Assembly (NCBI GenBank): GCA_963779605.1
Contig: CAVZYR010000003.1
Location: 1,011,377 to 1,075,376, forward strand
DNA: 64,000 nucleotides
DNA from: an uncultured Solirubrobacteraceae bacterium
GTDB lineage: Bacteria > Actinomycetota > Thermoleophilia > Solirubrobacterales > Solirubrobacteraceae
Direction: 5' to 3'
Shown here: positions 19,083-19,236 of the stretch, piece by piece
How positions within the stretch are numbered: the first letter of the stretch is position 1
How the letters are laid out: every line of letters starts with the position of its first letter
Program-made: the position numbers and the translations under genes
Notes under the pieces: model-generated
The model's input: the letters and a program-made list of their open reading frames with translations, nothing else
Told to the model about the DNA's origin: nothing
The model's database searches: none

Positions 19083-19146
19083 ATCGGGCTTCCTCGCTCT
19101 TCTTCCTCGCTCCGTCGGACTCGAGGGGATGTAGATGATCGGGAGG

Positions 19147-19220
19147 GTGCCCAGGCGCGCGGCGGAGATGCTCGCCGCTTCCCGGTGGTTGATTCCACCT
19201 CAGCGCCAGTCGCGGCGACG
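19147..19220 (-). promoter_or_regulatory. ZMP/ZTP-sensing riboswitch (pfl motif)
   Basis: Minus strand reads CGTCGCC-GCGACTGGCG-CTG-AGGTGG-AATCAA-CCACC-GGGAAGC-GGCGA...GCCG-CG-CGCCTGGGCAC, matching the GAC(U)GGCG / GGUGG..CCACCGGGRAGC / CGCCUGGGC hallmarks. -10 TACACT at 19227-19232. Confidence 0.9.
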
Positions 19221-19236
19221 AATCCGAGTGTAGCGA

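Follow-up and report, generated by a model that had tools for sequence, protein, structure and literature searches.

ZMP/ZTP riboswitches (Rfam family RF01750) are classically associated with purH, fhs, pfl and glyA, as well as with folD. The ligand is a signal of 10-formyl-THF shortage, and these riboswitches normally raise expression as ZMP rises. Two of the classical targets, glyA and folD, act in the conversion of serine to formyl-THF. We describe here a leader located before serC and serA in a 64-kb stretch of DNA (the window) from a soil actinobacterium of the Solirubrobacterales, with a G+C content of 70%. It has the P1/P2 domain, variable linker, P3, GGCG:CGCC pseudoknot and core nucleotides of the classical riboswitch, and the same logic is expected, with activation upon 10-formyl-THF shortage. 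It differs from the classical cases in its genes, that lie one step upstream of the glyA and folD targets, and in its P3, which has only three conserved pairs.

As for the mechanism, the pfl systems of Fusobacterium ulcerans and Clostridium beijerinckii make use of a terminator. There, the 3' part of the aptamer is contested by the expression platform, and the ligand protects the shared segment, turning expression on. The same logic is proposed for the serC leader, with the difference that it has no terminator and the putative competitor is either a Shine-Dalgarno (SD)/GCCC box or the start codon. With such partners, control would most likely be exerted at translation initiation.

RNA control of serine synthesis genes is known from other families. 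The alphaproteobacterial serC leader (RF00517), an orphan riboswitch candidate, is likewise found before a serC-serA operon with the ribosome binding site (RBS) within the structure; its fold is unrelated, and the whole window has no match to it at the gathering threshold. Glycine riboswitches and T-box(Ser) elements occur before serC, serA or serS, with different folds and with signals (glycine, uncharged tRNA-Ser) that report amino-acid status and not one-carbon or purine status. Neither family has a match in the window or in 80 related loci.

In terms of novelty, the riboswitch class itself is known and an Rfam-based annotation would already flag the aptamer. In the searchable literature, a source that leaves out the primary regulon tables, no paper connected ZTP with serC or serA, and the first 200 of the 438 supplementary files of Weinberg 2010 contained no serA or serC terms. 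The association is thus plausibly, though not established to be, new to the literature.

Identity and position of the aptamer

We scanned the whole 64 kb with Rfam 15 at gathering thresholds. This returned two matches, one to ZMP-ZTP and one to c-di-GMP-I. The ZMP-ZTP aptamer (RF01750) is found on the minus strand at 19223..19142, where it scores 61.6 bits (gathering score 39; E value 1.4e-7). The match is full-length (model positions 1-86 of 86), 22 bits over the gathering score, and unique in the window. All of the strongly conserved consensus nucleotides of the family are present, namely GACUGGCG, GGUGGA/ACCACCGGG and CCG..CGCCUGGGC. The aptamer is on the same strand as serC, 59 nt 5' of it, with serA following. 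The range 19083-19232 comprises exactly a TACACT box, the aptamer and the 59-nt spacer to the serC ATG, all on the minus strand.

The RNA in the window has every sequence and structure feature by which RF01750 membership was judged, including the two-subdomain architecture of P1/P2, linker and P3, with a pseudoknot joining the GGCG that follows P1 to the CGCC of the P3 loop. By class, it is a genuine ZMP/ZTP riboswitch, predicted to bind its ligand. A preliminary description of this DNA, with no strand given, had proposed a near-canonical pfl/ZTP aptamer before serC-serA, and had named a search with the Rfam pfl model and a survey of related serC leaders as checks. The score given above bears this out, as do the gene assignments and the survey reported below, and the literature agrees with the classical contexts (purH, fhs, pfl, glyA) that it listed. 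The genes serC and serA are outside the classical list, though serine synthesis feeds the one-carbon pool via GlyA/FolD.

A plus-strand open reading frame running across the leader (18927-19469) was rejected as a gene. It is a spurious high-GC frame that overlaps serC and the aptamer.

The serC-serA genes and their neighbourhood

The gene directly after the leader is serC (17919..19082, minus strand, ATG at 19082-19080), which encodes a phosphoserine transaminase of 387 aa. It matches the equivalog TIGR01366 (serC_3) with 608 bits, for a cut-off of 402, and carries the Pfam domain Aminotran_5. It is followed by serA (16255..17922, minus strand), encoding a D-3-phosphoglycerate dehydrogenase of 555 aa that matches TIGR01327 with 606 bits. 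In Pfam terms, SerA is composed of 2-Hacid_dh, 2-Hacid_dh_C, PGDH_inter and a C-terminal ACT domain. The ATG of serA overlaps the stop codon of serC (ATGA), and the SD box of serA, GAGAGGA, is found within the end of serC. Any control of serC translation is therefore expected to extend to serA. Downstream of serA there is a quinone-oxidoreductase-like gene (QOR).

Upstream of the leader, ilvC (20843..19854, minus strand) is followed by a gene of 198 aa at 19833..19237 on the same strand. We trimmed this gene from the open reading frame 19237-20172 to a GTG start after a GAGG box; at its other end, the stop codon and the TACACT box are 4 nt apart. Situated between ilvC and the serC promoter, the gene is conserved, with 43-78% identity in more than 30 related loci. 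It has no Pfam or NCBIfam family and no sequence relative in the PDB. The gene is missing in L023 and L031, two related loci where the riboswitch is lost.

Structure and covariation

For 52 aptamers aligned with MAFFT, we mapped the Rfam structure together with the known pseudoknot. In the window, P1 is formed by 19218-19212 with 19178-19172, P1b by 19209-19208 with 19182-19181, and P2 by 19198-19195 with 19188-19185. The pseudoknot joins GGCG (19207-19204) to CGCC (19157-19154), and P3 joins GCC (19163-19161) to GGC (19151-19149); all are on the minus strand.

Across the alignment, 85% of the structure cells form standard pairs, compared to 36-49% in controls with the partners shifted by 1-3 columns, and none of 500 column shuffles reached the observed covariation score. 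P1 shows compensatory changes, with four pairs altered in both partners (UA/CG being one example). The pseudoknot (4/4 pairs) and the P3 core GCC:GGC (3/3) are always paired and invariant, and the alignment has 34 invariant columns in total. The outer two Rfam pairs of P3 are unpaired in most of the 52 sequences. P3 is here a minimal 3-bp helix, and the nucleotides following it are free.

In one aptamer (L014:2847-2959), the junction from the pseudoknot strand to P2 is lengthened by an insertion of about 30 nt, yet the score is as high as 52.4 bits.

Distribution among relatives

A SerC protein search, with one genome per GTDB species, gave 80 loci (L001-L080). Most of them are from soil MAGs of Solirubrobacterales/Solirubrobacteraceae, at an amino-acid identity of 67-85%, and around ten are from Pseudonocardia. 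The window sequence itself matches soil metagenome runs. Of the 80 loci, 51 have a ZMP-ZTP aptamer that reaches or exceeds the gathering score (39.9-71 bits) directly 5' of serC. It shares the strand of serC, and 18-59 nt separate its end from the start codon. Almost all of the aptamer-bearing loci are Solirubrobacterales MAGs. No other RNA family was detected by Rfam in the related loci. The order serC to serA is conserved in every ZTP-bearing locus with enough downstream sequence.

On a rough neighbour-joining tree of SerC, the clade of the window (about 40 loci) is entirely ZTP-positive, with the exception of L023 and L031. These two are nested within the positive clade, and in both the stop codon of ilvC abuts the ATG of serC, which makes these secondary losses of the riboswitch. 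In the deeper branches, ZTP-positive and ZTP-negative loci are interleaved. The ZTP-negative Solirubrobacterales loci have short or leaderless-looking 5' ends, and all Pseudonocardia loci are ZTP-negative and have no serA neighbour. Judging from this pattern, the association of ZTP with serC looks old in Solirubrobacterales and repeatedly lost.

Many genes in these 80 loci look leaderless, among them ilvC, QOR and the ZTP-negative serC starts. They have -10-like boxes (GATAGCCT, TAGGGT, AATAACCT) 6-9 nt before the start codon and no SD. Compared to them, the long, SD-bearing leader of serC is exceptional in its neighbourhood.

Promoter and transcription

The box TACACT is found at 19227..19232 on the minus strand, in the context gcTACACTcg. 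A TAnnnT hexamer is present in all 52 leaders, 12-16 nt (mode 15) 5' of the invariant GACUGGCG. The most common variant is TACACT (34 leaders), followed by TAAACT (7) and TAGACT (5). Further 5' of the box there is no conservation. This is a conserved box of the -10 type, and gcTAcAcTcg resembles the actinobacterial consensus (TAnnnT; GnTAnAnTnG in Corynebacterium). Actinobacterial promoters often have no recognisable -35. It is thus unsurprising that a simple sigma-70 scan of the leader region gave no -35/-10 pair, and we relied on conservation of the -10 instead. From the position of the box, transcription would start at about 19221-19219, at the base of P1 and 6-8 nt 3' of the box.

Low-depth metatranscriptome contigs of close relatives cover 19035-19188 (X17) and 19015-19222 (X18). 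DNA carry-over is possible, and these contigs show only that the leader is present in RNA libraries, defining no transcript end. In the region 18900-19900 there is no terminator made of a stem and a U-tract.

Predicted pairing of the aptamer tail with the ribosome binding site

P3's 3' strand together with the C-rich tail following it, UGGGCACCCUC (19143..19153, minus strand), form a putative anti-SD and switching segment, as judged from RNAduplex and minimum free energy (MFE) folds. This segment is complementary to GAGGAAGCCCG (19085..19095, minus strand), that is, to the conserved SD GAGGAA (19095-19090) and the next five bases, GCCCG (19089-19085). In RNAduplex, UGGGCACCCUC pairs with CGAGGAAGCCCGA at -15.5 kcal/mol, and unconstrained MFE folds of the leader form the UGGGCACCCUC:GAGGAAGCCCG helix around an inner hairpin.

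The preliminary description had placed a -10 (TACACT) just upstream of the aptamer, had noted that there is no U-tract terminator, and had suggested that a CCCTCCC tract after the aptamer could pair with the purine-rich RBS region. The near-fixed distance of the TAnnnT box in all 52 leaders agrees with the promoter, and the terminator is indeed absent. As for the tract (19147..19141, at the 3' end of the aptamer), the tail is indeed predicted to pair with the SD, in a helix longer than proposed. This sequestering helix includes the 3' strand of P3, with UGGGC paired to the GCCCG beside the SD, and in this way it would be coupled to ligand binding.

In the leaders, a GCGAGGA(G/A)GCCC box is conserved 1-5 nt 5' of the start codon. 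We compared the 15 nt starting from the U of CCUGGGC with the serC RBS (-20..+9) in 52 leaders. The optimal duplex of the tail with its own serC RBS has a mean of -14.8 kcal/mol, compared to -9.9 kcal/mol (sd 3.0) for shuffled RBSs. With start regions of neighbouring genes from the same loci, values are -8.7 kcal/mol for ilvC (serC better in 32/32), -10.3 kcal/mol for QOR (28/30) and -12.3 kcal/mol for serA (8/10). In 50 of the 52 leaders the optimal duplex with the serC RBS leaves no base of GGGC unpaired. In MFE folds of the full leaders, GGGC pairs in the RBS window in 36 of 52, with 9.9 expected; here at least three of the four GGGC bases had to be paired within -20..+12 of the AUG, and the expectation is from dinucleotide shuffles of the downstream sequence.

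Duplexes of the tail with its own RBS and with those of other loci are not discriminating (-14.8 against -14.1 kcal/mol), because most leaders share one design. For this reason the RBSs of neighbouring genes and the shuffle test on full folds were used as controls. The shared design also limits strict covariation support to a handful of lineages. A consensus helix was not recovered by RNAalifold from 23 expression platforms, a result that is uninformative, since MAFFT misaligned the GCCC and AUG columns.

The CCUGGGC segment is fixed by the aptamer, so it is the partner in the RBS that must adapt. Most leaders have GAGGA(G/A)GCCC as partner. In L032, GAGGAUGCCCC makes a perfect 10-bp duplex with its own GGGCAUCCUU, and in L018, GAAGGAAGCCC pairs with GGGCAUUCUUC. 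For L044, L051, L060 and L080 the partner covers the start codon and codons 2-3, as CAUGACCCAG pairs with UGGGCAUGU. Finally, the partner in L073, L074 and L077 is UGCCCA. The case for the sequestering helix is made by positional conservation, the controls and these few compensatory lineages, in place of a formal covariation statistic.

Spacer element and models of the switch

The spacer of the window contains a predicted hairpin (19105..19126, minus strand), seen in MFE folds, between CCUCG (19126-19122) and the first of two CGAGG segments (19109-19105). The SD box GCGAGGAAG is duplicated, at 19110-19102 and 19097-19089, with AAGA between the copies; otherwise this duplication is only found in the closest relative, L030. 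It is the first GCGAGGAAG copy that pairs with the CCUCG of the spacer in the predicted folds. A spacer element, CCUCGAGG, is present in many leaders, and in the models it can also touch the GAGG boxes. We considered this palindrome as an essential anti-anti-SD and rejected it as essential, for it is missing from the short-spacer leaders L017, L027, L032, L033 and L037.

With the aptamer locked in the thermodynamic model, the mean unpaired probability of the RBS increases from 0.38 to 0.54, with a rise in 48 of 52 leaders; this rise is partly automatic, because locking removes pairing partners. For the leader of the window, the SD alone changes little (0.40 to 0.42), with a rise from 0.45 to 0.60 for the RBS as a whole. 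In this locked state the CCCUC of the tail and the CCUCG of the spacer are still able to touch the GAGG boxes. Enforcing the aptamer with its P3 costs about 11 kcal/mol relative to the MFE, a value that leaves out the pseudoknot, tertiary contacts and ligand. Modelling of the switch is thus only moderately supportive.

Proposed mechanism

We consider it likely that this ZMP/ZTP riboswitch turns on translation of serC, and of serA via translational coupling. The direction of the switch, ligand binding and the physiological effect are inferred. Transcription would begin from the leader's own -10 box, a few nt before P1. As long as no ligand is bound, the P3 3' strand plus its C-rich tail (UGGGCACCCUC) would pair with the SD and GCCC (GAGGAAGCCCG), hiding the ribosome site. 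When 10-formyl-THF is short, ZMP/ZTP would accumulate, bind, and lock the pseudoknot and P3. A locked P3 would withdraw GGGC from the sequestering helix, and the leftover 4-bp CCUC:GAGG would be weak enough for ribosomes to load. As the partner of the RBS is the 3' strand of P3 itself, closure of P3 and the pseudoknot by the ligand is expected to remove the GGGC:GCCC clamp, which makes an ON switch. More SerA and SerC would then give more serine, the substrate of GlyA/FolD for one-carbon folates. The ON direction matches the behaviour of the class and the metabolic logic.

The same aptamer could also work mainly on transcription or mRNA fate, if the apo helix or the untranslated leader led to Rho termination or decay and the ligand prevented it. 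It is common for translational riboswitches to be reinforced by Rho or degradation, most of the studied ZTP riboswitches control transcription, and the apo helix would place a sizeable GC-rich structure right before the start codon. Nevertheless, we regard this as an unlikely main mode of control. There is no stem with a U-tract, and in all four architectures the P3 3' strand has the SD or the start codon as its conserved partner, which indicates the ribosome site as the target. Most likely, an effect of Rho or decay would add to the translational mechanism and not replace it. A change of ligand is far less probable. In such a case the serC-associated RNAs would keep the ZTP fold with an altered specificity, sensing a different metabolite such as one tied to serine or folate status. 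However, the RF01750 core is kept and invariant in the 52 orthologues, the scores, at 50-71 bits, are what one expects of true members, and the gene context suits ZMP logic. These observations weigh more than the existence of such variants in other riboswitch classes, the non-classical gene context and the reduction of P3 to three conserved pairs in the clade.

The least probable explanation of all is a chance match, or a decayed relic with no regulatory role. The loss of the element in L023 and L031 and the several sister lineages that have none would fit a relic. On the contrary, the comparative data effectively refute it: the score is far over the gathering threshold, the position is kept in 51 loci with SerC proteins 67-85% identical while the flanks diverge, P1 shows compensatory changes, and the promoter box and the SD partner are co-conserved. 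Translational activation by ZMP/ZTP is the reading that we retain as the best one.

If true, the folate-stress signal carried by ZMP/ZTP extends beyond folate enzymes and purine steps to the supply of the one-carbon donor, serine. A wider statement can be made for Thermoleophilia (Solirubrobacterales), to which we give slightly less than even weight. There, the ZTP regulon may reach the committed steps of serine synthesis through an undescribed association, old and repeatedly lost. The platforms would be purely translational, using a minimal 3-bp P3 and its tail as anti-SD, and they would cover the SD or AUG in at least four ways, each specific to a lineage. The understanding of the riboswitch class is unchanged by the serC-serA finding, and the lineage is one of little-studied soil actinobacteria. 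These leaders provide around 50 natural variants of a translational ZTP platform, for a class where mechanistic work has so far been nearly all terminator-based. They lend themselves to comparisons of kinetic with thermodynamic switching, and to the design of reporters in high-GC actinobacteria.

Other features of the window

The region 5' of ilvC (20880-24869) contains an open reading frame resembling a SAM-methyltransferase and menaquinone genes, instead of ilvB/ilvN. The latter are a menE-like gene (21728-23524, minus strand), menB (22715-23968, plus strand) and menA (23883-24869, plus strand). The long open reading frames in this region overlap, and their start positions are approximate.

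Lastly, the second Rfam match is a c-di-GMP-I riboswitch (RF01051) at 44551-44627 on the minus strand, with 45.7 bits against a gathering score of 35. It is located 22 nt 5' of an open reading frame of 167 aa (44026-44529, minus strand) with a prepilin-type N-terminal methylation motif (Pfam N_methyl), and a pilin-like gene is a typical context for c-di-GMP-I.
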